DNA of 64,000 nucleotides from Escherichia coli O157 typing phage 14 (KP869112); one strand, 5' to 3'; counted from the stretch's first letter, positions 7,730 to 58,917 are shown. A program made the numbers and translations. The notes: generated from the letters alone by a model not told the origin.

Positions 7730-8077
7730 ATGTCAAAGATTAAATCGATATTAATGTGGGTAGCTGTTGTGGCTTTTGTAGGATACTGGACTTGGGAAAC
7801 TGAATTAAAAGATATCGGATATACCAGTCTTGAGAGCAAGGCATGCATTGGCATAACCGATGCATTCAGGCAAAATGCTATGGATCACGAATGTGTCGAT
7901 GCAGATATAGATGAGAAACTATCTAAGGACAAGGATTTTTACCATGGTCATGCCTTGCTTGATAGTGGTGACACTGTAGAATTCTGGTCGTGGTTCCGTG
8001 AAGATGGAACAATAAAGACAGCAGTAAAGATTTCCAACAAAGAGTTAATGCTGTTGCAGCAGAAGGAGGCTCAATGA
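7730..8077 (+). CDS. hypothetical protein with N-terminal TM/signal anchor
   Basis: AAGAAAGAGG RBS; hydrophobic N-terminus. Confidence 0.5.
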   Translation: MSKIKSILMWVAVVAFVGYWTWETELKDIGYTSLESKACIGITDAFRQNAMDHECVDADIDEKLSKDKDFYHGHALLDSGDTVEFWSWFREDGTIKTAVKISNKELMLLQQKEAQ

Positions 8078-8361
8078 TCTGGATATCTTATACTGATGGC
8101 ACCATGCTGTATACTGCAGGTACCAGATATGAAGTTCAGGAGAACGATAAAAAATTTATCGTAAGAACATTTGACAAGGACGACAACCTTTTGCTAGAAT
8201 TGACTTACAAGGTTGGAGAGGTATCCAATATCCAATTGGATTGTGGTCATAAAGATAATCCACTCAAAAAACCTGGAATAGGCAAGGCTTCAGAAGAACG
8301 TTTGTCTCGTATTGCAGAAAGCGTTTCTCCCCAAAAATCCAAGAAGAGGATTAGAAAATGA
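8074..8361 (+). CDS. hypothetical protein (95 aa)
   Basis: ORF, 4-nt overlap junctions. Confidence 0.5.
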   Translation: MIWISYTDGTMLYTAGTRYEVQENDKKFIVRTFDKDDNLLLELTYKVGEVSNIQLDCGHKDNPLKKPGIGKASEERLSRIAESVSPQKSKKRIRK

Positions 8362-8558
8362 GTGACAAAATTCTTAAATTTAATACCTACTATGAGAATG
8401 ATTTGAACGATCTGTATTATATAGTGCGTAGCGAAAACCCAAATGTAGTTCTGTTTTGCCGAGAACCTTTCAAAAAAGAGGAGATTGAATCTACCATGAA
8501 TGTGGATCAGATTTCACACCTGCTGCTCCTTGGATCATTAAAAGAGGCAGTATTCTAA
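8358..8558 (+). CDS. hypothetical protein (66 aa)
   Basis: ORF, overlapping junction. Confidence 0.45.
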   Translation: MSDKILKFNTYYENDLNDLYYIVRSENPNVVLFCREPFKKEEIESTMNVDQISHLLLLGSLKEAVF

Positions 8559-8577
8559 ACCAGGGTGGAGGGTTTTT

Positions 8578-8763
8578 ATGAAGCATTATTGTCTGTCTGG
8601 TAGATTGGGTGCAGATTGTGATTGGGTTTTCTTAAAACTTGTCAGCATTCGAGAGTCCATCTCAGAAGAAGAGCAAGAAAGTGAGCTGATGTCATGGATC
8701 AACCATTACGGTAACACTTTTCGGCATGTTAAGGTAGAAGAGTTGCCAAGCGAGGCTGATTGA
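8578..8763 (+). CDS. hypothetical protein (61 aa)
   Basis: ORF with GGAGGG RBS. Confidence 0.4.
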   Translation: MKHYCLSGRLGADCDWVFLKLVSIRESISEEEQESELMSWINHYGNTFRHVKVEELPSEAD

Positions 8764-8858
8764 CTATGATTGCATCAATATTAACGTTTATGGGTGGCGT
8801 GGCATTCGGATTCATTGTTTGCCTGTTTATAGTGATTATGTCTATGCGAGGCTGAATT

Positions 8859-9155
8859 ATGAAACTTTTTGAGTGGTTTAAAAAGTTTAAATATAAAGCT
8901 GTAGCCATCGTGCCGTGGTCCATTCAGTGGGTTGATGAAGGTGGTCTACCAATACCTGGTGACAAAGATACTGGGTACTGGATTATGATGGAGAACGGGT
9001 TTGGAAAGCGAAAGTATACGTGCACAAACTCTACTCGATCTGCGCTTAATAGAGTGCCTGGTTACAAACTTATGGTTGTGTGGAAAATGTCAGGCGTGCC
9101 TCCAGCTAATGCTCAATTTCTTACTGACAATCCGACCACGGTAGAGGGAGATTGA
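8859..9155 (+). CDS. hypothetical protein (98 aa)
   Basis: ORF in co-directional array. Confidence 0.5.
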   Translation: MKLFEWFKKFKYKAVAIVPWSIQWVDEGGLPIPGDKDTGYWIMMENGFGKRKYTCTNSTRSALNRVPGYKLMVVWKMSGVPPANAQFLTDNPTTVEGD

Positions 9156-9439
9156 TAATGAAAAAGATTAACAGTGGTGAAGTTGAGTTTAAACTTGTCG
9201 GGAAAGGCACTTACTGGGAAGTTCGTCAAAAGGTATATTTGTTCGGTCTTATTCCCTATTGGTCTAAATTCTACTGGGGAGCTAACGAGTGGGGAAGATA
9301 CGCCACCAAATCAATGGCACTTATTGGTATAGCAGAGTACATTGCAGCCAGAGATAGGGTTGGAGACACTTATTACTATACTGCGGACGATATTCGTAAC
9401 AGTGTTTACGTCCCACAACCACCTGATGGAGACCGTTGA
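9152..9439 (+). CDS. hypothetical protein (95 aa)
   Basis: ORF, overlapping junctions. Confidence 0.5.
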   Translation: MIMKKINSGEVEFKLVGKGTYWEVRQKVYLFGLIPYWSKFYWGANEWGRYATKSMALIGIAEYIAARDRVGDTYYYTADDIRNSVYVPQPPDGDR

Positions 9440-46774: not shown

Positions 46775-47119
46775 TTACTGCTCAAGGTCTTCAGAGTCAA
46801 GCTCAAAAAGAATCAAACTGTGCATGCCTGCAGAGAGATCAACACACCCTGCAACAATAAGGGTTTGATAGTAAGGTTCAGCACCCTCAATGTCTTCGTT
46901 AAAATCCACAACAAGGTAGTCACCTTTGTTAAAGGTGTATTTGTCCGATGTAAACGCAAAACCTGCCCAGTCCCCTACTGCAGGATCTTTATCAGTCACC
47001 TTTGTTAGCAGTAGATCTTTTTCACGAGATCTTTTAGTAAAATCGTGAATCACAACATCCTTCTCTTCAGGAGTTGGATTGCCGCACACGTAGTTAACGA
47101 TATTTCTCCACAAACTCAT
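46775..47119 (-). CDS. hypothetical protein (114 aa)
   Basis: 4-nt overlap with helicase gene. Confidence 0.5.
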   Translation of the reverse strand: MSLWRNIVNYVCGNPTPEEKDVVIHDFTKRSREKDLLLTKVTDKDPAVGDWAGFAFTSDKYTFNKGDYLVVDFNEDIEGAEPYYQTLIVAGCVDLSAGMHSLILFELDSEDLEQ

Positions 47120-48486
47120 ACGTCCCCCTCTTCTGCTCTGGTTTCAAAATCTTTCCTGACAATTTTGTCTAAGTCAGGGAATGTTGTATTGTAAAACTCT
47201 ACGACTCGCGGGTCAACAATAATGTCAACCTCTCTTAGTGGACGCAACAAGTTTATTCCTTGTATTGTCTTAACTCTACTCAAAGCGACATACGTCATCC
47301 CAGGAGAGAAAGCTCCGTTCTTTCCAAGGTCTAGGTTGTAACAATCTAGTGTAAGTCCTTGACTTTTATGAGATGTTACGGCGTACCCAGATTTCAGAGG
47401 AAGTTGCTTGTATGACCCAATCACTACCCTCTCTATAAACTTCTCCATCTTCCTTTCTGCAATGTTGTATCTCTGAGATGGCTTATACTCGTTATTCTCC
47501 CACAACCTCTGCTCTATGTCAACCTGTGTTCCATCTTCAAGCTCTACCACCACCGCCTTGTTCTTAAATTTAACAATTGTAGCACGTGTTCCGTTAACAT
47601 AATAAGGTACTTTGTGCGTCGGGTCAACATCGTTGGCGGTTATCATAACTTTCATGCCAATTTTCAACTTCATCTCCTGCTCAACTGGCAGGGTGGAGGG
47701 AAACTTACCCTTCATTTCACCAGTGTATACCTTCTCTGGGGCGTTGATGGCATCATAGAACCTTCTGTTCACTTCCTCTGCTTGTTTGTTGGTGGCGCAA
47801 ATTGTGAGAGCGTCTGTTGGTACACCTCCTTTGTAACAGCGAGCATTAAGTTCTGCTACAACCTCTTTTATGCGACGACCCTCACGAACACAGTTGAGCA
47901 TTGTAGCAAATCGAACAGACTCCTGTCGGAACTGATCTATTAGGGCTATGTTGTGGAGGTCAAGCTCTTTCCAAGATTCGGTATAGCAACACAGGTCCGT
48001 ATGGTAGAAGTTGAAGTAGGCTTCCTTCTCCATAGAAGAGACAACAGGAGGTGCCTGGTAAAAATCGCCAAACAATATGACCTGTATGCCTCCGAAAGGT
48101 TTGTCATTTTTTCGAAGGAAGCGGAGTTTCCTATCCATCTCTATAAACTTATCAGCACGGATCATAGAGATTTCATCGATAATTAGGATGGTAAATGCCT
48201 TGCTTTTCAAAGGCTTTGCTGTTTTTGCCCTTATTGCGGTCCAGTCCGACTCCATGCTCACACCTGCTGCAAGATCGAAGGTTCGGTGTGCTGTTGCTCC
48301 ATTAACGTTTAAAGCGGCTACCCCTGTCGGGGCAACCGTTATGCAAGAGTCTCCATACATTGACTGGATCATGTTGATGAGGTACGTCTTCCCACAACCT
48401 GCGGGTCCTGAAACGAAGACATTCTCACCGCTCATGATTGCAACGAGGGCAGCATCTGTGCCTACATCATACTGCCCTTTTTCCAT
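47116..48486 (-). CDS. SF1 DNA helicase (Dda/RecD/PIF1-like)
   Basis: Walker A SGPAGCGKTY, Walker B ILIIDEISM, C-terminal SH3-like region typical of Dda-type helicases. Confidence 0.7.
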   Translation of the reverse strand: MEKGQYDVGTDAALVAIMSGENVFVSGPAGCGKTYLINMIQSMYGDSCITVAPTGVAALNVNGATAHRTFDLAAGVSMESDWTAIRAKTAKPLKSKAFTILIIDEISMIRADKFIEMDRKLRFLRKNDKPFGGIQVILFGDFYQAPPVVSSMEKEAYFNFYHTDLCCYTESWKELDLHNIALIDQFRQESVRFATMLNCVREGRRIKEVVAELNARCYKGGVPTDALTICATNKQAEEVNRRFYDAINAPEKVYTGEMKGKFPSTLPVEQEMKLKIGMKVMITANDVDPTHKVPYYVNGTRATIVKFKNKAVVVELEDGTQVDIEQRLWENNEYKPSQRYNIAERKMEKFIERVVIGSYKQLPLKSGYAVTSHKSQGLTLDCYNLDLGKNGAFSPGMTYVALSRVKTIQGINLLRPLREVDIIVDPRVVEFYNTTFPDLDKIVRKDFETRAEEGDV

Positions 48487-49691
48487 TACGCCTCCTCGTA
48501 AAGAATGTCGATAGTGTTACCGTCACGATCAACTACATATTCAATAGGGTCTCCATCTTTGCGTGCTTCCGGAGCTACCACAATCTCATAGCGGCATGCA
48601 CGGCACTTAGCGCTATTGTGTTGGTATGGCACACTAACCACATCTGCAGGATCAACCATAACAGTCATTACAGTGCCGTAGCTCTTTGCATACTCTTTGC
48701 TGGCGCAGTGTAAGCCATAGGAGCACGCAGCTTCCGGATCATCCTCTACAAAGTTACGAGGCATGGATACAAAAGCACCCTGGTATTGTGGAACTTTACC
48801 ACTGTGCCAATCCACCCACTTGCTGCCGTTAAACTGAACCCCTTTGTAGCAAATTATTCGACCATCTTCTGCAATCTGGATATCGTTGGCCTGCATAAAA
48901 TCGTAGAGCATGTTTACAGATTTTGCAGAAGGATTGCGTAGCAGGCGAACGAGGAATTTCACATAGCGGTCATCCAGCGTTCCGTCTGCATAATCTTTCT
49001 CAATTTTCTTTGCAATGGTGGATCGCATCTCTACACCGTAGTAGTAGAGCTTACCATCTTTCATGATCAGGTTGTCTGCAAGTGTGGTGAACTCATTCTT
49101 GCGTTCCAGCCAGACAAGGATTTCACCAATTGCCTCATCATATTCCTGAACAGAGATATGGTCGAAGACTTTCTGGTAAACTTCCTCACTTTCGCTGCGG
49201 CGAATTTCAAAAATGCCTTCGTTGCAGGTGATCTGGAGGAGTTCCCCACAAATAACTACCAAAGGCTCGATGCTTCGAGTCTGTTGCTGAGACACACTGC
49301 TCACCACCTCCAGCACCGGATCTTTGACTTCTACTAAAGGTTCTTCTGACTTGATTGCTACCCCAGTGAACCCCACACCGTGAACAACACACAGTGGGTA
49401 TACCACGCCCCAACGTTTAACGGAACCTTCGCCTAAATCTAAGATCATAGCGTACTTACCGTTATCTTCCAGACCGTATCGAAATAAACGGGCCTCTTCG
49501 CGGGTTTCAAAATCCTCACGGGTGTAGCAGACGCTGTCACGGTCAGGATCGAACAACTCTGGGGCACCAACTGCCAGTGTCCAGGTTGTGTCGCCTTTCT
49601 CAATGGCACATGTGAAACCCTTCTTCTCAAGTTCTGCACGGCGGTCTCGTGCTTCTTTACGGGTTTTGAAATGTTCGTAGATGAAAATCAT
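48486..49691 (-). CDS. hypothetical protein, possible rIIB-like by position
   Basis: Directly downstream of the rIIA-like GHKL ATPase gene in the same orientation, as in rIIA-rIIB pairs; no motif evidence. Confidence 0.3.
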   Translation of the reverse strand: MIFIYEHFKTRKEARDRRAELEKKGFTCAIEKGDTTWTLAVGAPELFDPDRDSVCYTREDFETREEARLFRYGLEDNGKYAMILDLGEGSVKRWGVVYPLCVVHGVGFTGVAIKSEEPLVEVKDPVLEVVSSVSQQQTRSIEPLVVICGELLQITCNEGIFEIRRSESEEVYQKVFDHISVQEYDEAIGEILVWLERKNEFTTLADNLIMKDGKLYYYGVEMRSTIAKKIEKDYADGTLDDRYVKFLVRLLRNPSAKSVNMLYDFMQANDIQIAEDGRIICYKGVQFNGSKWVDWHSGKVPQYQGAFVSMPRNFVEDDPEAACSYGLHCASKEYAKSYGTVMTVMVDPADVVSVPYQHNSAKCRACRYEIVVAPEARKDGDPIEYVVDRDGNTIDILYEEA

Positions 49692-49701
49692 CTTGGTCTC
49701 C

Positions 49702-51684
49702 TTATTTGATGTTATTCTTTGTATCGATCAGTTCACGGTATTCAATCATAGCAGGAGTGTCCCAATATTTCAAGCCCACATGCTTCAAAAGTGGATATTT
49801 CTTTTCCAATCTTGCAATATAGGCCTTCCCGCACTTAACCCGGTTGGCGATTAAGATTTTGGCACGATGATTTAGCTCACTGTGCTTCCACGCGGTGTTA
49901 CCTTCCCACTTGTGGAAATGTGGCCGATAATTTCCAAAATCCTGCATGGGGATAATTTTCCCTAATTGTCTATACAGGCTGTCATATGAAGTTTCATTTG
50001 CTGCGCGAGTCAGTAAGAATTTCCAAGCATCCTCTTTCAACAAATGTTCCACATTCTTCTCTGTAACATACTGGCAATCAGGATCAGTCCAAAGCAGACG
50101 AGATTCTGATACCAGGTACAGATCTTCACCTTCAGGAATCTGGAGTGCAGCACGCACACGGTCATAATTTTGCTGGTAGATGTTACTCATCTGGCCCAGC
50201 CAGCAGCTTCCCCGTTGGATATCCCCCTCATAAGGGATGCAATGCTTAATCTTCTTGAACTCTGCCTTCGTGAGGCGCTCACGATGGAAGTAGCCATCCT
50301 CTCTAAGCTTCTTAACCCAGTAGCCTGGCTCGTAACGAGTTTTGGTTTCACCTTTCTTCGCAGGTCGGCGTGGAAGCTCCGATAACAATTTGACCGTATC
50401 TGCAAAGAACGGATGGTGTGCCGCCTCTTTAAACTCTTTCACCAGATCCTTGTTCCGGCAATAGAAAACGTTGCGTCCGGTGATCTCGCTTAAGTAGTTA
50501 CACTTATTCCGGTTATATTTGCCGTCTCCGTCGTTAAATACAAGGTATACACCTCGTAAGAACTCCGACTTTCCGTAACGAGCATAGCCTATGCGGCCTT
50601 TATTTAAGCCGCCAGCGAAAATTTCACAATCGCCTAAGTCGCCAAGCCCTGTTTCTTCCCAACGGTTCCACATAAAGTTTTTGCCGAAGATGTGTCCGAA
50701 CACTCCACTGTTCTTCATCATCTCACGTGCTTCTGAGGATGTTTTTGCTGTCTCCAATTCCGCAACAACTTCTGCCCCACGAAGACGTATACCTTCTTTG
50801 ACAAAGGCCTCCAGGCGATCCTGGAATCCACCATCGTCGTGCCCCTCTATGGTCCATTCGCGCCCAGGGTTAATATTGCAATCCCCGATAGGGATCTCTA
50901 CACAGATTGCAGGGTAGTCTGTCAATGTTTCCAGAAACTTAGAGCGGTAAGGTTGGTGTCCCATCACCACACGGCTCTCATCAGAGCTGGTATAACCTTT
51001 CAGGATGGTCATTTTCCAACCATCTTTCTCGTAGTGATACTGCGCCTCAACCTTGTCACCTTCCAGCATCTTACTGGTCATAGGGTCGGTAACGGTAAAC
51101 GGAAACTTTGCATAGCGTAGGCATGACGCAATAGCAGTGCGATATTTCAGAACATGCTCTTTCTTAACATGGAACTGAACTTTTACCCCGTTGTGCTCTT
51201 CAGTCTTCCGCTCGCGGATCTTGGTAACGTTTGGGATACCCTGATCCAAGAACAACAGATATGTGCTTTCAACACCGTTGTGCACACTGATCACATCGAA
51301 AGTGTCCACCATGCTGAACGGGGCCTTTGAACCTACACCTTTATTACCTACCAGAGCGTTGCTGTTGCGCTTGGTTGACTCCCCGAGGTTCATGAAAGTG
51401 TTGCGGACCATCTCTTCCGACATGCCCAATCCAACGTCCTGCACAAAGAAGTATGGTTCAAGGTCTGTAGGAGAGTGAATGATGATCGGTACATCACCCC
51501 GTCCAGACTCAACATGGGAGTCCACAGCATTGAAGATTGGTTCACGGCAGCTTGCCAGCACCTTATCTTCGTAAATCCCTTTAATGATTAGCCCAAAAGT
51601 CTCTTTGTTCAGAGAAATTGAGCCCCTGGTGACCTCCATATTTCCGGTTAGTACTGCTTTAGTTTCATTACTGTTTACAATCAT
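49702..51684 (-). CDS. rIIA: GHKL-family ATPase, rIIA-like
   Basis: Bergerat-fold motifs EPIFNAVD (N box), DVGLGM (G1), GNKGVGSKAPF (G2) in N-terminal third of a 660 aa protein. Confidence 0.5.
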   Translation of the reverse strand: MIVNSNETKAVLTGNMEVTRGSISLNKETFGLIIKGIYEDKVLASCREPIFNAVDSHVESGRGDVPIIIHSPTDLEPYFFVQDVGLGMSEEMVRNTFMNLGESTKRNSNALVGNKGVGSKAPFSMVDTFDVISVHNGVESTYLLFLDQGIPNVTKIRERKTEEHNGVKVQFHVKKEHVLKYRTAIASCLRYAKFPFTVTDPMTSKMLEGDKVEAQYHYEKDGWKMTILKGYTSSDESRVVMGHQPYRSKFLETLTDYPAICVEIPIGDCNINPGREWTIEGHDDGGFQDRLEAFVKEGIRLRGAEVVAELETAKTSSEAREMMKNSGVFGHIFGKNFMWNRWEETGLGDLGDCEIFAGGLNKGRIGYARYGKSEFLRGVYLVFNDGDGKYNRNKCNYLSEITGRNVFYCRNKDLVKEFKEAAHHPFFADTVKLLSELPRRPAKKGETKTRYEPGYWVKKLREDGYFHRERLTKAEFKKIKHCIPYEGDIQRGSCWLGQMSNIYQQNYDRVRAALQIPEGEDLYLVSESRLLWTDPDCQYVTEKNVEHLLKEDAWKFLLTRAANETSYDSLYRQLGKIIPMQDFGNYRPHFHKWEGNTAWKHSELNHRAKILIANRVKCGKAYIARLEKKYPLLKHVGLKYWDTPAMIEYRELIDTKNNIK

Positions 51685-52181
51685 TTATTGCGCTCCTTGT
51701 AGTAGATATGACTCCCGAATTGAGCTGTCCTCTGCATCTTTTTTGCCCATTTCGGTCGTACTTTGGTTGTATGGTAGTGTGTTGCTCCACCTGTTATGTC
51801 CATAGCCATGTATGCAACATGGTTGTTATTATAGACCTTTAGAAGCATCTTTGCAAGACTTTTAGCGTGATCCCATGAATCTTTTTCTGTCACCTTAAAA
51901 GTTTTGCCGTGGTTTGTCCACGAAAACTGGTTAGGTTGGTAGACAATCTTTCTTATAGTGTCTGGGTATTTGGGGTGAGATTTCCTGTTTAGTGTGGCAA
52001 ACCCTGATGCCAGCATACCCATCGTGCCATCCCCTCTAGCCTCCCTGTAGATATTGCATGCCAGAATGTTTTCCTTAGTAGCTGAGGGCTTGCAAGTATG
52101 ATATACTTTTTGTTTTGGTGCTGCAACAACAGGCAGCGATAAAAATGCGCTCAAAATAATAGCAAAGATCTTAATTTTCAC
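51681..52181 (-). CDS. SleB/CwlJ-like cell wall hydrolase with signal peptide
   Basis: N-terminal signal sequence MKIKIFAIILSAFLSLPVVAA; NIYREARGDG motif typical of the family. Confidence 0.55.
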   Translation of the reverse strand: MKIKIFAIILSAFLSLPVVAAPKQKVYHTCKPSATKENILACNIYREARGDGTMGMLASGFATLNRKSHPKYPDTIRKIVYQPNQFSWTNHGKTFKVTEKDSWDHAKSLAKMLLKVYNNNHVAYMAMDITGGATHYHTTKVRPKWAKKMQRTAQFGSHIYYKERNK

Positions 52182-52620: not shown

Positions 52621-53805
52621 TTAAGCTTTAGCCAAAATGGCGCTAAACTCTTCACCAAACTCTTTTACAATCTTCATCAGGTTTGGGTATGCTTTGATCA
52701 GCTGAGCAACGATCTTGTCACGACCTTTACCGATAAGCAAGGCATTTCCTAAGGCATTAGGTTTCATCATCGCCATAAAGACTGAAAATACAAAATCTCG
52801 GTTCTCGTCCTTGAAGTTTTCCCAAAGGAAATCGAGAAAGTTTGCCACACAGCTAACAAGATCTTCGTCGGAGATACTTGCATTTTCCATCATATTACGA
52901 ATAGCGATGCAACCTTCAGATCCAAGAATCCACAAGATGTCTGGCTGTTTAGGACCTACGTATTCTTTGCAACCTCCTGCCATAATCCGACCGATTTCCG
53001 GTAAGTTGCGTTTCTTGGTGTGGTAAGTCCAGATCTCTACCGCTGCAGTGTGACCAATAGCACCTTGCAGAAGAACACGGGCCATAGCGTCAGAAATAAT
53101 ACCGCTGTCAAAATCGTGCAAGATATCAGATGCAGCAACCCAAGATCGCGGTGTGGCAAAAGATGGACAATTAATCTCAGCCATGGCCTCATAATTATCG
53201 ATAGCTGATGGAACTCTTTTCAGATATCCAATTACAGAGGAGTGCACCCCATTAAGGAATGCGTAGTCCTCAATAAACACCTCTGCATTGCTTGTAACCT
53301 CTACAATGATAAAACGGTTAGCCAGAGGGGCTTCGAGCGCCGAAAGAACCGCACCATCTGTAGAACGGTTACCAGCAGCCACAAAAACAGAACCCTTAGG
53401 GAATGCATAGGTACCGCACTTGTGGTCAAGCATAATTTGCATTGCAACCTTTTGCAGGTAGTTATCTGCATGAGTGAGCTCATCCAGAAAGATAATTCCG
53501 CTCCAGTCAGGATCCGCAGGCCAAAATTCTGGAATTGCAAACACTGTACGTGTAGTTCCATCCGCTTCTACAGGGATAGGTAGCCCAGATAAGTCGGCAG
53601 GATCTTTATCTGACAGTCGCACGTCAACAAGGTTGTCATCTCGCTCACCGAACATATTATCAGCGATCTGCTTCATCACCTGGCTTTTACCCACACCCAT
53701 TGGTCCCAAAATTAGGACAGATCGGCTATGACGTTGGGCAAACTGAATAATAGCTGGCAACTCACGGACAGTGATTTGACCACTTTCGAATACGTTTCTT
53801 GACAT
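52621..53805 (-). CDS. MoxR/AAA_5-type AAA+ ATPase
   Basis: Walker A LILGPMGVGKSQ, Walker B IIFLDELTHA. Confidence 0.65.
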   Translation of the reverse strand: MSRNVFESGQITVRELPAIIQFAQRHSRSVLILGPMGVGKSQVMKQIADNMFGERDDNLVDVRLSDKDPADLSGLPIPVEADGTTRTVFAIPEFWPADPDWSGIIFLDELTHADNYLQKVAMQIMLDHKCGTYAFPKGSVFVAAGNRSTDGAVLSALEAPLANRFIIVEVTSNAEVFIEDYAFLNGVHSSVIGYLKRVPSAIDNYEAMAEINCPSFATPRSWVAASDILHDFDSGIISDAMARVLLQGAIGHTAAVEIWTYHTKKRNLPEIGRIMAGGCKEYVGPKQPDILWILGSEGCIAIRNMMENASISDEDLVSCVANFLDFLWENFKDENRDFVFSVFMAMMKPNALGNALLIGKGRDKIVAQLIKAYPNLMKIVKEFGEEFSAILAKA

Positions 53806-54074
53806 TAGTAAAAGTCCTCTACTTGTGTGTAAGTGTTTTCAAAGTTTTCCAAAACAGATATCACATCGGATCTGTCAATATCATACGTGACTCTCCAGTT
53901 GTACGCAACCCTTTCTGCTGTTGCCTCTTCTGGCGCTAGTCGTCTGCTGGCATAAAAGAGTGTTGGAGTACACTTTCTTGCTTGCCCTCTAACTTTCCCA
54001 TAATAATATCTGTGAATATCTTTGTCAAAATTTAACTCTTTTTCTGCACGAAGTTCATATTGCTGGTATAACAT
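53805..54074 (-). CDS. hypothetical protein (89 aa)
   Basis: ORF in minus array. Confidence 0.45.
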   Translation of the reverse strand: MLYQQYELRAEKELNFDKDIHRYYYGKVRGQARKCTPTLFYASRRLAPEEATAERVAYNWRVTYDIDRSDVISVLENFENTYTQVEDFY

Positions 54075-54118
54075 CTCTACTACTCCTTAAGCAGCATCCT
54101 TGCCGCCATTCCTGCCCA

Positions 54119-54499
54119 CTAAAATGCAGTCCGAATCCAGACAAGGTTCTTATCTGCCCAATCATAGAGGCAAGTCATTGCACTATTGAATTGCTCACAC
54201 GGAGGATAATCTTCTTCCATCTGACGCATAGCAGAGCCTTGTGGGTAAAGCTCCCGTGCTGCAAACCACGCGTCGTAGTCATCAACGGTGTCGAAGTAGT
54301 ATACAACATCCTCCAACTCAGGATCGAACTTTGAACTATCAGGATCCAGTTGTTCAGGGAACTTGGAGCGTAACTTGCCAGCCACAATACTTGCCAACTC
54401 GCTAACATGCTTATTGTCCCACTCCACTAGCTTCCCGTCTTCAGTGATGCGTCCTAACCACTGATCATGAAGGTCAACTGTTGTCTTCCACAGGGCCAT
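54119..54499 (-). CDS. hypothetical acidic protein (126 aa)
   Basis: ORF in minus array. Confidence 0.5.
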   Translation of the reverse strand: MALWKTTVDLHDQWLGRITEDGKLVEWDNKHVSELASIVAGKLRSKFPEQLDPDSSKFDPELEDVVYYFDTVDDYDAWFAARELYPQGSAMRQMEEDYPPCEQFNSAMTCLYDWADKNLVWIRTAF

Positions 54500-54501
54500 T
54501 A

Positions 54502-54759
54502 TCAGTCCACCTCTTCTTCTCGTTGTAGTTCAAGATACCCGTAGGTCTGGACATCTTCAAGGGTGTGGAACTCCCCATCTGCCGCTAATGCACGAACAAC
54601 TTGGCACAAAACCTTATGAGGAACTTCATCCAGACCAAGATTCAGTGCAGGGAACACCTTATCTAAGTCAACAAAATAAATGAACTGTAGCTCACCAGCT
54701 TCAAAAGGTGTATCTTCAATAAACATCTTCTCGGCATTAGTCAAGATCTGCACTTTCAT
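54502..54759 (-). CDS. small acidic protein, MKV-type N-terminus
   Basis: MKVQIL...REEEVD resembles the MKVK family. Confidence 0.45.
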   Translation of the reverse strand: MKVQILTNAEKMFIEDTPFEAGELQFIYFVDLDKVFPALNLGLDEVPHKVLCQVVRALAADGEFHTLEDVQTYGYLELQREEEVD

Positions 54760-55136
54760 TATTCTACCTCCTCTTCTTTTTCTTCGGCATTAGTTTCATG
54801 GCTACCCCACTCTGGAGTTTCCACCTCGATAGTAAACTCACGCACTACACGGTAATTGCCCATGAAGCGCTCCACTTCGTCAAGGCTTATGGAGAAGCCA
54901 TTGGCAACCAGGTCTGCAGCACCCTCTTCTACCAGGTAGTCCAGATTGGCTTCCAGAGCTTCAGGTTCAAACCCTGTCAATGCAATCAGATAACCTTTCC
55001 CTTCATCAGGGAGGACAATACAGCCCAACTGATTTTCTTTAAAAAGGCAGTGACCATCATTATTGATTGGGTGTTCATTGCAGTAAATAGCTGCACGATA
55101 AGTAACTTTAGACATCGGTAAGGTCTCCTTAGGCAA
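54759..55136 (-). CDS. hypothetical acidic protein (125 aa)
   Basis: ORF in minus array. Confidence 0.5.
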   Translation of the reverse strand: MPKETLPMSKVTYRAAIYCNEHPINNDGHCLFKENQLGCIVLPDEGKGYLIALTGFEPEALEANLDYLVEEGAADLVANGFSISLDEVERFMGNYRVVREFTIEVETPEWGSHETNAEEKEEEVE

Positions 55137-55407
55137 TTGTCATTTTACATTCTTGAAATTTTAACACAAGACGGTGATTGTGTCTAGTGTCTAAAAAGAT
55201 TTTTTCAACCATCAGGTACACGGTATAACCGTCCATCTTGTTGACAACAAAATCTCCAGGGTAAGGGAGAGTGTCCCCTGGGCTGGGAAAACATAACCCG
55301 CTCAGAAAGGCATCGTCAGTGGTGGACTTAATAGATTTCCACACACTGTCTGCCTGAACATGCTCACCGACGTAATATACATTACCACATGCCTTCATCA
55401 TAGTCAA
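55129..55407 (-). CDS. hypothetical protein (92 aa)
   Basis: ORF overlapping junctions. Confidence 0.45.
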   Translation of the reverse strand: MTMMKACGNVYYVGEHVQADSVWKSIKSTTDDAFLSGLCFPSPGDTLPYPGDFVVNKMDGYTVYLMVEKIFLDTRHNHRLVLKFQECKMTIA

Positions 55408-56303
55408 ATCCCCGCATAAATTAAACTTGTATCAGTATACTTCTTTAACGGGTAAATATCCTGTCCGTAAATGTAGTCATTAAACACCTCATCTACCCAA
55501 AGACTGCATTTATACCCCATCATTTCTAAAACGCCCATCTCTTCATCAGTGAATTTATCACCACTCTTGCAGGATGTCAATACCTCATTTTGTACTCTTG
55601 CCAGTTCAAAAATGTTGTTAGCAATGTCACTATTAACGATCAGGTATTCACCCAAAGGGTGTGCGGCATTAAAGATGCACAGTGGGAGGTTGACGTAATA
55701 GTCCCCAGGTGTATAGAAATTGTTGAGGTCCTTCACCAGAACATTCTTATCAGTCACTTCATTTATAACATCGTGCATATCGCACATCTTTATATGCTTG
55801 AGGATTCCATCTCCCATCACAAAATAAAAACTTGCTGAGATACTCTCGGCATAGATCTTACTGGACCCGTTGTAGTTGTATTTTACGCGAATACTCACGG
55901 GAGTTTTTCCTGTCGCGTTAGCCATCATCCAAAGGAACGGAAGTTCAAACTTCTCTTCTGAGGAAACAAAAGGTGAAGTTGCCAGAGATCGGAAACCTCC
56001 AGAAAAGTTGAAAGTCACAGAACCGCTCCGGCGGTATGATACCGCGTATTCTACTTTTATATCGACATACCCGTTGGAATAGGTGTGTCCTTCATTATCT
56101 AAATATGTCCACTTATCAGACCCAGATACCAATCTACGCTCAATAACCTTCATCACTATAGGAATTAGTGGGTTGGTACAAACCGCTTTTGAAGTAGCTT
56201 TAGCATCTAAAGCCTCGTAAATTGCAGAAAGGATGTCTCCAGCTGAGAGATTGGTTGTTATATCCTGTTGCCACCGAGTACTAAAACTGTTAAGATTTGC
56301 CAT
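55404..56303 (-). CDS. hypothetical protein (299 aa)
   Basis: First gene of minus array; promoter upstream. Confidence 0.55.
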   Translation of the reverse strand: MANLNSFSTRWQQDITTNLSAGDILSAIYEALDAKATSKAVCTNPLIPIVMKVIERRLVSGSDKWTYLDNEGHTYSNGYVDIKVEYAVSYRRSGSVTFNFSGGFRSLATSPFVSSEEKFELPFLWMMANATGKTPVSIRVKYNYNGSSKIYAESISASFYFVMGDGILKHIKMCDMHDVINEVTDKNVLVKDLNNFYTPGDYYVNLPLCIFNAAHPLGEYLIVNSDIANNIFELARVQNEVLTSCKSGDKFTDEEMGVLEMMGYKCSLWVDEVFNDYIYGQDIYPLKKYTDTSLIYAGI

Positions 56304-56343
56304 GAGTGAGTGCTCCTATGTTGGTTTTCTTTTGAATGGGTGC

Positions 56344-56372
56344 ACTATATCGGAGATTTAGAGTAAAGTCAA
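56344..56372 (-). promoter_or_regulatory. sigma70-like promoter on minus strand (TTGACT-N17-TATAGT)
   Basis: Read on reverse complement upstream of 55404..56303. Confidence 0.5.
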
Positions 56373-56385
56373 CACGTTTTTGATG

Positions 56386-56414
56386 TTGACATCTGTTGAG
56401 ACAATTGATACGAT
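56386..56414 (+). promoter_or_regulatory. sigma70-like promoter on plus strand (TTGACA-N17-TACGAT)
   Basis: Divergent from the minus promoter; upstream of 56446 start. Confidence 0.45.
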
Positions 56415-56445
56415 TTCTTCACTTACAGAGCACGAGAGACAACTC

Positions 56446-57423
56446 ATGAATCTTGAAAAATATTATACACCAGAAGAGTTAGAGCGCTTGCTCAAAAAAT
56501 ATAGACGCAAACAGAATAACGCACGGAAACGAGATATAGAGTTCGACCTGTCGTGGGAAGAATACCTCCTATTTGGTAAAAAACTTTTAGGGGAGGGGGT
56601 ATGCGACTACACCCTTATACCTTTCGACATGCACACAGATGAGAACGGACTGGGAAATCCTTTCTACCCATCTTTGGAGCGTATAGATGATGAAGGTCCT
56701 TACGCAATTGACAATTGTTGTGTGGTAGGGTTGAGGTGCAATGCTCTGAAAGACTGTCTGGTAGATAAAAAGACTGCAATCCTGATTAAAGACAAAACTG
56801 ATCGAAAAATTGTCCAGCAGATGATGCTCCACCTGAGCGAAGAGCGTATGGAGAAATTGAAAGGTGATTATACTTTTGAAGATTTCATCTTGCAATACGG
56901 GACAGAAGAAGATAAACTAGCACTATTTGACGAAGAGGAAGAAGATATGTCACCGATGCAGGATTTTAAAAATTTCATGGCTGATCGTGCAGCCAACAAA
57001 CACATTTCAGACATCGTAAACGAGACTGTGACAGAAGAAATTGAAGAACAGACCTCTGAAGAAGAAAAAGAGCCTCAGGAGGTTGAAGAGGAGATTGCAG
57101 AAGAGGTTCCTGCACTGCCTGATGATGTTGAGATTGCTAAGGCTTACACTTTCTATTGTCAAACGTTCTACGATGCAGGTATGAAAGTTGATCTGTCGTT
57201 CAGCCAATTTAAGAGTTCGTATATTCGCAAATGCTGTGCTTTAACTGGTGAACGTCTCGGAGCTGGACTTAAACCACTGTTGGTGACCGACTGGAATAAA
57301 GGTTTCACTAAAGGAAACTTTATGGTAGTATCTCCAATTATGGAGAAAGCTATGACAGATCTTATGAAGACCACCCGCATGACAATGACCGAGTTGGCAG
57401 GTATTTTCAAACACGTTAAATAA
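56446..57423 (+). CDS. HNH-type (HNH_3-like) endonuclease domain protein, possible free-standing homing endonuclease
   Basis: PSLERIDDEGPYAIDNCCVVGLRCNALK resembles SLDRIDxxKGY...N HNH_3 motif, a second degenerate copy near C-terminus; start at internal ATG downstream of promoter (ORF track 56380..57423). Confidence 0.4.
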   Translation: MNLEKYYTPEELERLLKKYRRKQNNARKRDIEFDLSWEEYLLFGKKLLGEGVCDYTLIPFDMHTDENGLGNPFYPSLERIDDEGPYAIDNCCVVGLRCNALKDCLVDKKTAILIKDKTDRKIVQQMMLHLSEERMEKLKGDYTFEDFILQYGTEEDKLALFDEEEEDMSPMQDFKNFMADRAANKHISDIVNETVTEEIEEQTSEEEKEPQEVEEEIAEEVPALPDDVEIAKAYTFYCQTFYDAGMKVDLSFSQFKSSYIRKCCALTGERLGAGLKPLLVTDWNKGFTKGNFMVVSPIMEKAMTDLMKTTRMTMTELAGIFKHVK

Positions 57424-57435
57424 TGACAGGGGCCA

Positions 57436-58917
57436 ATGGCCCCTTCTGGAGTTTTAATGGATAGCAGAAGTTCAGAAATCATTGCCTCACAGAAAGATGA
57501 TGCCCTGAGAATGTTGCAGGCTGCACGTATGTATCTCCTTGAAAAGCTGCCGTTTTATGGCACACTACTGTCAGGGTTGCAGTTCGTAGAAAACCACACA
57601 TGGTGCTCCACCATGGCAACCGACCATAAACGCATCTATTACAGTCCTGAGTTCATTATGGGATTGGCTGATGAACGCAAGGCTATTCTTAAGGCTTCTC
57701 TAACTGACGAGCAGTTTGAGATGGCTGAAGTTTTCTATTCCCCAAAATCTGTGAAAGAGGTGGCCTTCCTTCTGTCACATGAGGTGGGACATATTATCTG
57801 TGATCACCTGGTCCGTGGTAAAAGCTTTGAGCCGGAACTGTTCAATATTGCTTGTGATCACGTTATCAACACAGGTCTTGTGGTTGACTTTAGCAAGCCC
57901 CCTTGTGTTTTCTTCCCGAAGGGGAAAAGCACTACGTTCGTGAAAGGTAAGCCTTTTGGATTCTTAGCCAGCTGCTACTGCGACATGAAGTTTCATGGAT
58001 GGATTGCTGAGAACGTCTATGCAGTTCTTGATAAGCAAAGAGATCAGAATAACGGTAAAAGTAAGAGCGGTAAAGGTGAGAACTCTCAAGGAGATAAGCG
58101 ACAAACCGATGATCACATGAGTGGTAACGGTGGCACCAGTGATGATCTTGGAAAGGCTATGGGGTATGATCAGCCACAACCTGTAATCAGTCAATCTGAT
58201 AAAGATCAGGCCATGCAGGACTCTGGCGATATGCTGGAGGCAGCAATGCAAGCTTCCGGAGGCCGTTGCCCTGAGGCGGTTCGTGAGTTTGTCAAGAATA
58301 GAGGTAAGCCTGTAATCAATTATATAGACATCATCAAGCAACGCATGTTGTCTAAACGAAAGGCTGAACTGACCTACAGAAAACCTGGTCGCCGATCTGG
58401 GTCTTTGACCAGCACAATGCGAAAAGTTGGGGCTATAAACAAGAACCAGCACGTTATTGTTCCTGGTCGTAATCCGGAAAACACCATAGATATTGTGGTA
58501 GCTTTAGACGTTTCTGGCTCGATCTCTCAAAGAACTTTAAAGAAAATGTTCAATGAAATCACCGGATTGTGCAATCTGTATAAAGAGTTTAAGGTTACAA
58601 TGTTCTGTTGGTCAACCGAGATTGGAGAGGTCAAAGTATACACTCGCGGCAACATAGACGAGATGATCAACTATGAGGTCCACTCAACATGGGGCACAAC
58701 AGCTGCTTGCGTGTTCGAGTATCTGGATGCCAACATACCAAATGCAAAAGATGTCATCGTCCTGACCGACCTATACTTTGAGCATAACTTTGAACAAAAG
58801 GCTGTTGACAACAAGTGGAAAAAGTACGATACTTTATGGGTTCTCACCGAAGGGTATAATAAAAATTATATCCCGAGCTTTGGGAAAACTGTGGAATTAA
58901 TCGAGTACGCCAAGTAA
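57436..58917 (+). CDS. metallopeptidase-like (HExxH) plus von Willebrand factor A domain protein
   Basis: SHEVGHIICDH zinc-binding HExxH motif; C-terminal LDVSGS MIDAS motif of VWA domains. Confidence 0.6.
   Translation: MAPSGVLMDSRSSEIIASQKDDALRMLQAARMYLLEKLPFYGTLLSGLQFVENHTWCSTMATDHKRIYYSPEFIMGLADERKAILKASLTDEQFEMAEVFYSPKSVKEVAFLLSHEVGHIICDHLVRGKSFEPELFNIACDHVINTGLVVDFSKPPCVFFPKGKSTTFVKGKPFGFLASCYCDMKFHGWIAENVYAVLDKQRDQNNGKSKSGKGENSQGDKRQTDDHMSGNGGTSDDLGKAMGYDQPQPVISQSDKDQAMQDSGDMLEAAMQASGGRCPEAVREFVKNRGKPVINYIDIIKQRMLSKRKAELTYRKPGRRSGSLTSTMRKVGAINKNQHVIVPGRNPENTIDIVVALDVSGSISQRTLKKMFNEITGLCNLYKEFKVTMFCWSTEIGEVKVYTRGNIDEMINYEVHSTWGTTAACVFEYLDANIPNAKDVIVLTDLYFEHNFEQKAVDNKWKKYDTLWVLTEGYNKNYIPSFGKTVELIEYAK

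Follow-up and report, generated by a model that had tools for sequence, protein, structure and literature searches.

In phage N4, the AAA ATPase gp24 and the vWFA protein gp25 are products of conserved core genes of the N4-like phages, which are reported as middle transcripts (PMC4193335, PMC2784036). For the group 2.2 jumbo phages, a pair of a MoxR ATPase and a metallopeptidase-vWA protein has been described, which was proposed to serve the assembly of virions, including proteolytic processing (Iyer et al., 2021; PMC7824862). In the CGN subfamily of the MoxR ATPases, which includes NorQ/NorD and CbbQ/CbbO, an ATPase hexamer acts together with a single adaptor that bears a metal ion-dependent adhesion site (MIDAS) and engages the target (PMC13036017, PMC9976466). 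Cryo-electron microscopy of NorQ-NorD revealed a finger of the VWA domain inserted into the hexamer pore of the ATPase; the adaptor is remodeled by ATP hydrolysis (PMC13036017). Here, we report on two genes of Escherichia coli O157 typing phage 14 (KP869112), contained in a stretch of 64,000 nucleotides that was analyzed as a whole and is called the window in the following. One gene encodes a MoxR-like ATPase, the other a protein with a zincin-like HExxH metallopeptidase domain fused to a VWA domain, which is called the partner protein below. It is strongly supported that the two proteins are components of one conserved module, consisting of a MoxR ATPase and a metallopeptidase/VWA adaptor.

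The window represents an rV5/JES2013-like coliphage of the genus Vequintavirus. The 7.2-kb region under study shares 99.7% identity with Escherichia phage JES2013 and 99.2% with rV5; it is matched by 121 phage records, 114 of which cover at least 80% of it in one collinear piece. An earlier interpretation, made from the sequence of the window alone (the sequence-only reading), had placed two open reading frames (ORFs) on opposite strands, about 3.6 kb apart; both ORFs, for 394 and 493 amino acids (aa), were recovered at the coordinates given there, and the distance between them is 3630 bp. Conservation was judged from 47 aligned ATPase homologues and 48 aligned homologues of the partner protein, the latter with identities down to about 20%.

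The partner protein matches two Pfam families above their gathering scores and in N- to C-terminal order, namely DUF2201_N (PF13203, "putative metallopeptidase domain"; 3.5e-28, 99.4 bits versus a cut-off of 23.2) and DUF2201 (PF09967, "VWA-like domain"; 4e-11, 43.5 bits versus 26.4). All 48 aligned homologues match both families. The two motifs already recognized in the sequence-only reading, HExxH and the MIDAS motif DVSGS, are present; HEVGH spans residues 115-119, and DVSGS spans residues 358-362. In all 48 homologues, H115, E116, and H119 of the HExxH motif are invariant, as are H124 and D141, which are both candidates for the third zinc ligand. The same is true for the complete MIDAS (D358, S360, G361, S362, T421, and D445), so that the VWA domain exhibits the full DxSxS...T...D pattern. 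The peptidase region has weak profile links to the M48, minigluzincin, and SprT-like families. Structures of both proteins were modeled with AlphaFold2 and compared with the PDB by Foldseek; the model of the partner protein has a predicted local distance difference test score (pLDDT) of 83.6, and its VWA fold matches include the VWA domain of NorD.

In the ATPase, the Walker A motif is GPMGVGKS (with K40) and the Walker B motif comprises D108 and E109. Ten residues of Walker A, Walker B, and sensor-1 as well as arginines are invariant in all 47 homologues (G37, G39, K40, S41, D108, E109, N146, R147, R164, and R220). The assignment as a divergent MoxR-class AAA+ protein is supported indirectly, by matches of the homologues to Pfam families, a profile match to Midasin, hairpin inserts in the structural model, and the folds of NorQ and CbbQ2. 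Specifically, 23 of the 47 aligned homologues match AAA_5 and AAA_3 (E<=0.001) and eight match bpMoxR, and for homologues with about 35% identity AAA_3, AAA_5, and bpMoxR are found as precomputed Pfam assignments. The family profile matches the AAA domains of Midasin (1e-11). The model (pLDDT 85.6) contains a beta-hairpin at residues 75-90 and a short pre-sensor-1 hairpin (short strands before beta-4), i.e., the hairpin inserts of the helix-2-insert/pre-sensor-1 hairpin clade of AAA+ proteins. Its top fold matches in the PDB are NorQ in NorQ-NorD complexes (E 3e-8, TM score to the target 0.67) and the MoxR ATPase CbbQ2.

The co-occurrence of the two families is essentially obligate in both directions. 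An ATPase homologue was found within 10 kb of the partner gene in 76 of 80 IMG/VR loci; among the four exceptions, two are truncated at a contig end. The ATPase gene lies upstream of the partner gene and on the same strand in 64 of the 76 paired loci; 26 of these 64 have a gap of at most 132 bp, and most of the others have one small ORF in between. When the search started from the ATPase, the partner gene turned up at each of the 70 loci with sufficient sequence downstream; in 68 of these the two genes share one direction and lie 13-547 bp apart. In bacteria, each of 72 untruncated loci carries the ATPase gene immediately upstream of the partner gene on the same strand. Examples of this adjacent, co-directional arrangement are the loci L003, L004, and L005, and one bacterium that shows it is Sulfurivermis fontis. 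Among isolate phage genomes, tblastn retrieved 671 and 812 records for the two families, each with one place per genome, and the numbers per genus are similar (Escherichia 211 vs. 213, Pseudomonas 104 vs. 108, Pectobacterium 26 vs. 26, Cronobacter 17 vs. 17). The window contains one homologue of each family and no second MoxR-like ATPase or VWA gene; its remaining P-loop proteins are a PIF1/Dda-like helicase, a DnaB-like helicase, and PhoH. Families that never co-occur, or a VWA protein paired with a different ATPase, are clearly not what is found, and the ATPase-VWA partnership suggested by the sequence-only reading is borne out by this near-universal co-occurrence, by the adjacency elsewhere, and by the intact catalytic and binding motifs.

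Many metagenomic phages (IMG/VR loci L018-L085) contain one small ORF of about 95-145 aa between the ATPase and the VWA gene; these ORFs form two clusters of 16 and 13 loci and could represent a lineage-specific third component. The clustered ORFs match no small ORF near the two genes of the window, and ORF5 and ORF3, which flank the ATPase gene, are kept only in the closest relatives (for ORF5, L006-L009).

The best explanation, which we consider probable, is that the two genes of the window encode one ATPase plus metallopeptidase/VWA module that was split long ago, and that performs ATP-driven, MIDAS-targeted remodeling and proteolysis in an early or middle role. CbbQ/CbbO and RavA/ViaA work along lines similar to NorQ/NorD. 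Following these systems, the ATPase would form a hexameric ring onto which the VWA domain of the partner protein docks, the MIDAS would capture an acidic residue of a specific target protein, and ATP hydrolysis would remodel the complex of adaptor and target. With an HExxH domain present in the adaptor itself, this would probably result in an ATP-dependent, target-specific cleavage or processing. The comparative analysis shows the homology, the intact motifs, the obligate co-occurrence, the derived split, and the non-HNH character of the gene upstream of the partner gene, and from these results a physical interaction of the two proteins, proteolysis, the timing of expression, and the target are inferred.

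Several points weigh against this explanation. The Pfam scan of the ATPase itself gave matches below threshold throughout, including AAA_5 with 16.7 bits versus a gathering cut-off of 22; the sequence-only reading had called the protein AAA_5/MoxR-like, and while the MoxR part is supported by homologues, the Midasin profile, and fold, the AAA_5 match of the protein itself is sub-threshold. For the peptidase domain no fold match was obtained, the fold searches being dominated by the VWA domain; H124 and D141 are alternative candidates for its third zinc ligand, and its links to known peptidase families are weak. All promoters discussed below are matches to the sigma70 consensus only. In two metagenomic loci (L063 and L083), the 10 kb flanking a DUF2201-type gene on each side contain neither a MoxR-like ATPase gene nor any P-loop ORF of 80 aa or more, which reflects either a further split arrangement or loss of the ATPase. 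The divergence of the ATPase and of the partner protein is correlated (Pearson 0.97, Spearman 0.43), but this was rejected as evidence for an interaction, as any two co-inherited genes would show the same. Lastly, a role in virion assembly is favored by Iyer et al. (PMC7824862).

According to this last alternative, the pair would be a chaperone/co-chaperone of virion assembly that also processes structural proteins. The proposal was published for the jumbo-phage pair with reference to the MoxR-VWA tail assembly of Acidianus two-tailed virus (PMC7824862, PMC7159879), and MoxR-VWA systems as a rule act as chaperones in assembly or maturation (PMC13036017). However, the genes of the window reside in an early region, beside rIIA/rIIB and the gene for an Srd-like protein (see below), and behind sigma70-like promoters, and gp24 and gp25 of N4 are middle genes. 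In 18 diverse phage clusters the annotated neighbors are genes of nucleotide and DNA metabolism (5'-3' exonuclease, ThyX, DHFR, DNA ligase, MazG), and structural genes are absent among them. In addition, the homologues encoded at 72 bacterial chromosomal loci cannot serve virion assembly. We therefore regard the assembly role as unlikely. Because of the rIIA/rIIB neighborhood, the promoters, the N4 middle genes, the metabolic neighbors, and the bacterial homologues, an early or middle non-structural role of the module, acting on a host protein or on a phage protein of the replication phase, is favored, albeit not decisively.

A more far-reaching version of this role is that the module is an early/middle ATP-driven, MIDAS-targeted zincin protease common to three large phage lineages (the Schitoviridae, the Vequintavirinae and their relatives, and the group 2.2 jumbo phages), which recognizes and cleaves a specific host protein, e.g., a defense factor or a factor of RNA/DNA metabolism, and does not assist virion assembly; for the Vequintavirus lineage, a cooperation with the co-transcribed Srd-like protein may be added. 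In this specific form the idea is speculative, and we would give it only a small chance. If true, it would define a new class of phage proteases for host takeover or counter-defense, built on a MoxR-VWA chassis.

The arrangement of the two genes in the window and of the features between them is summarized in Table 1.

Table 1. Features of the ATPase/partner region of E. coli O157 typing phage 14 (positions in the window).
Feature	Position	Strand	Basis or remark
MoxR-class AAA+ ATPase, 394 aa (rV5 ORF4; distant homologue of N4 gp24)	52621..53805	-	ORF and PHROG 1297 "ATPase" (2.2e-110)
Small ORF5, 89 aa	53805..54074	-	PHROG 13164; stop codon overlaps ATPase start (TAATG)
Strong sigma70-like promoter, TTGACA-17-TATTAT, 11/12 consensus match	54000..54028	-	Inside ORF5, upstream of ATPase gene
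Five leftward early genes, rV5 ORF6-ORF10	54119..56303	-	Between promoter region and ATPase gene
Putative divergent promoter region	56344..56414		sigma70-like; leftward 56372..56344, rightward 56386..56414
Srd-like early gene, 325 aa (rV5 ORF11)	56446..57423	+	BLASTP to T4 Srd; PHROG 1400, PHROG 4592
GC-rich palindrome AGGGGCCAATGGCCCCT	57428..57444		Between stop codon of Srd-like gene and partner gene; ATG 57436 in loop
Zincin-like metallopeptidase (HExxH) fused to VWA domain, 493 aa (rV5 ORF12; distant homologue of N4 gp25)	57436..58917	+	Pfam DUF2201_N and DUF2201

The divergent layout is not peculiar to the window, but was found, with distances of 3.5-5.1 kb, in all 12 IMG/VR loci in which the partner protein is 39-98% identical to that of the window. 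Among more distant members of the subfamily, the Certrevirus CB7 and phage A5-4 have a co-directional order of the MoxR gene, a gene for 164-170 aa, and the partner gene, and in the metagenomic relative L171 the co-directional pair is only 39 nt apart. Because these outgroups keep the co-directional order, the split is old, stable, and derived within the Vequintavirus-like lineage. It would have arisen by an old rearrangement that moved the ATPase gene into the leftward early operon and left the partner gene in the rightward one, behind the Srd-like gene. Both operons would then start from one divergent sigma70-like promoter region. Such a region, which also the sequence-only reading had assumed, is plausible: sigma70-like sites are present on both strands, the rightward site coincides with the annotated rV5 promoter P11, and the sign of the GC skew switches at this position. 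As the divergent promoter region is shared, joint early expression of the ATPase and the partner protein was probably kept after the split. The promoter inside ORF5 is the best match of the entire region, and P4 of rV5 is annotated in the same ORF. The TAATG overlap suggests translational coupling of ORF5 and the ATPase gene. The products of ORF6 to ORF10 match none of the Pfam families scanned; ORF6 and ORF10 are conserved in 10 of the 12 split-lineage loci.

The split raises the alternative that the two proteins have become functionally independent in Vequintavirus-like phages. They are encoded in different operons, on opposite strands and 3.6 kb apart, and the two metagenomic loci mentioned above have a partner gene and no nearby ATPase gene. 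Nevertheless, 114 of the 121 records of Vequintavirus retain both genes with full synteny, and so does each of the 12 divergent loci of the split lineage retain both, down to 39% identity. The Walker, sensor, HExxH, and MIDAS residues are intact, the two proteins have diverged to a similar extent (e.g., 36.7% vs. 36.9% against A5-4), and the shared divergent promoter region permits co-expression. Independence is therefore very improbable.

The gene directly upstream of the partner gene had been taken for an HNH-like gene in the sequence-only reading, and an insertion of a homing endonuclease had been considered as a possible cause of a disruption or rearrangement. A gene is indeed present at this position, but the HNH label stems from a PHROG name only. 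The N-terminal part of its product, about 140 residues, aligns with T4 Srd (BLASTP over 143 residues, E=4e-7, 24% identity), and the product matches PHROG 1400 ("Srd", 3.2e-9), PHROG 4592 (2.4e-14), and PHROG 3118 ("HNH endonuclease"); its PHROG labels also include "decoy of host sigma70" and "Srd anti-sigma factor". The N-terminal half matches no Pfam family at E<=10, HNH included, and a sequence search of the PDB gave no match. In the family alignment R29, C53, R79, Y86, N90, and N99 are invariant, and no histidine is invariant or nearly invariant. Homologues are present in 249 phage records, in 204 of them at full length. Its location is unchanged in each of the 12 split-lineage loci, and the gene diverges roughly in step with its neighbors, with 37-40% identity in phages in which the partner protein is 43-47% identical. 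Because of the missing HNH signature, the homology to T4 Srd, the fixed position, and the divergence in step, it is a vertically inherited Srd-like early gene and not a mobile endonuclease. The mechanically defined ORF starts with TTG 56380 inside the promoter; due to this overlap the true start is probably ATG 56446.

The similarity to T4 Srd includes the motif C-x-Y-[ST]...[ST]-[LIV]-[ED]-R-[IF]-[DN]...G-Y..G-N, and both genes are located in early regions. The protein of the window is longer (325 aa vs. 248 aa) and adds an acidic linker and a degenerate second copy of the motif. Its C-terminal part (residues ~249-295, window positions 57195-57330) aligns with the same segment of T4 Srd as the N-terminal domain (E=0.001), so that a second, degenerate copy of the domain seems to follow the linker. 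T4 Srd itself is reported to bind RNase E and to stimulate host mRNA decay, and not to be a nuclease (PMC4980113, citing Qi et al., 2015). The RNase E activity as reported there belongs to T4 Srd, while the protein of the window is Srd-like by its sequence.

In the sister group, a genuine HNH_3 endonuclease gene (Pfam 1e-24) is present between the MoxR and VWA genes of CB7 (CB7_109; L167, 4475-4987) and A5-4 (A54_50; L168, 6285-6779). It adds about 0.5 kb and leaves the pair co-directional. The related contig L171 lacks it, and such a sporadic occurrence is expected of a homing endonuclease. A descent of the Srd-like gene from this HNH_3 gene was considered and rejected, as the two share no similarity (hhalign probability 0.1%). 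An HNH homing endonuclease upstream of the partner gene as the cause of a split or rearrangement of the operon, as the PHROG 3118 name, weaker matches to PHROGs labeled endonuclease and endonuclease VII, and the insertion-prone site in CB7 and A5-4 might indicate, is scarcely credible, given the lack of a Pfam HNH match and of a conserved histidine, the dissimilarity to the Certrevirus gene, the homology to T4 Srd, a reported RNase E activator (PMC4980113), the fixed position in every relative, and the fact that an insertion alone can produce neither the different orientation of the ATPase gene nor the conserved genes in between (e.g., ORF6 and ORF10) in an arrangement that is old and stable.

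The annotation of the region is heterogeneous. In RefSeq-style re-annotations, "HNH endonuclease" is the name of the Srd-like gene as well as of the DUF2201 metallopeptidase-VWA gene, and PHROG 1314, which is the metallopeptidase-VWA family, carries the same label; for both genes this appears to be a propagated misannotation. The rV5 record (DQ832317) labels ORF4 "MoxR ATPase", ORF11 "anti-sigma factor; Srd-like", and ORF12 "hypothetical protein", and annotates P4 and P11 as sigma70-type promoters, whereas newer records name ORF12 "putative metallopeptidase" or "VWA-like domain containing protein". In the rV5 deposit (L001, 7756-9217) the partner gene is broken into ORF12 (7756-9081) and an overlapping ORF13 (8972-9217), probably because of a frameshift or a sequencing error in this deposit; in the window and in most relatives it is a single intact ORF of 486-493 aa. 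The start of the partner protein may be ATG 57457 (486 aa) rather than ATG 57436, because the latter falls into the loop of the palindrome and other records annotate a product of 486 aa.

Further observations concern the surroundings of the pair. On the minus strand, the ATPase gene is accompanied by genes for a PIF1/Dda-like helicase (47119-48516), rIIB (48486-49691), rIIA (49702-51684), and a SleB-type cell-wall hydrolase (51681-52181), and this context (47119-52181) resembles the T4 early region. In T4, dda and srd adjoin each other in the early region. The minus-strand gene at 55404-56303 is called "putative alpha 1-3 fucosyltransferase" in many records; it has no Pfam match at E<=0.01 and is conserved in 10 of 12 split-lineage loci. 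Over the region, sixteen records entitled "Campylobacter phage" (MG0656xx, host Campylobacter jejuni) share 96-99% identity with rV5-like coliphages, and the attribution to a Campylobacter host looks doubtful. A PADLOC scan for defense systems returned insignificant P-loop matches only, an NCBIfam scan returned nothing informative, and the literature on COG3864, rV5 MoxR, PA5oct MoxR, and Vequintavirus essentiality yielded nothing useful.

To a specialist, the pairing as such is not surprising, as the biology of MoxR proteins makes it predictable and earlier work noted it in jumbo and N4-like phages. The pair is, nonetheless, a core and strongly conserved module of hundreds of sequenced phages (671 and 812 records) and of many bacteria, with a function that is predicted only. 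Recognizing the split rV5 genes as one module corrects misleading annotations as "HNH endonuclease" and exemplifies that the pair can persist without its genes being adjacent. The main interest of the module is its substrate, and rV5 together with the Vequintaviruses of the BASEL collection offers a tractable E. coli phage system to find its role.

The comparison with the described systems places the pair of the window within a known family of arrangements. Both proteins are distant homologues of N4 gp24 and gp25, with about 21-28% identity to the N4-like proteins; tblastn reaches N4-like phages (Schitoviridae), and one match is annotated as "N4 gp24-like protein". However, in N4-like phages the two genes are co-directional and either adjacent or separated by one small ORF, whereas the pair of the window is split across divergent operons. 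The jumbo-phage pair has the same architecture, a MoxR ATPase and a vWA protein with an N-terminal metallopeptidase, and direct tblastn matches were obtained for PA5oct, phAPEC6, MIJ3, Atu_ph07, and Serratia BF. In contrast to these, typing phage 14 is a 137-kb myovirus, with split genes in an early-gene region.

NorQ and CbbQ have the closest solved folds of the ATPase, and NorD is among the VWA matches of the partner protein, at sequence identities of 15-21%. In comparison with NorQ and CbbQ, the ATPase of the window has an extra helical C-terminal region (residues ~270-394). NorD and CbbO act on metabolic enzymes, i.e., in metal insertion into cNOR and in the reactivation of Rubisco, and both are devoid of the HExxH peptidase domain that the partner protein carries. 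The bacterial AAA_5 plus DUF2201 operons, e.g., of Sulfurivermis fontis and Sedimenticola, agree with the pair in both Pfam architectures and in the invariant motifs, and their genes are always adjacent and co-directional; they differ by their non-viral context and by an identity of only 21-25% to the partner protein. The scan of bacterial contigs with the profile yielded a narrow clade of sulfur-oxidizing Gammaproteobacteria, so that the bacterial diversity is under-sampled in this comparison. Therefore, at the level of prediction the module is already known from N4-like and jumbo phages, and what is new here is that the split genes of the rV5 type belong to it, and that the co-occurrence of its two components is essentially obligate both ways.

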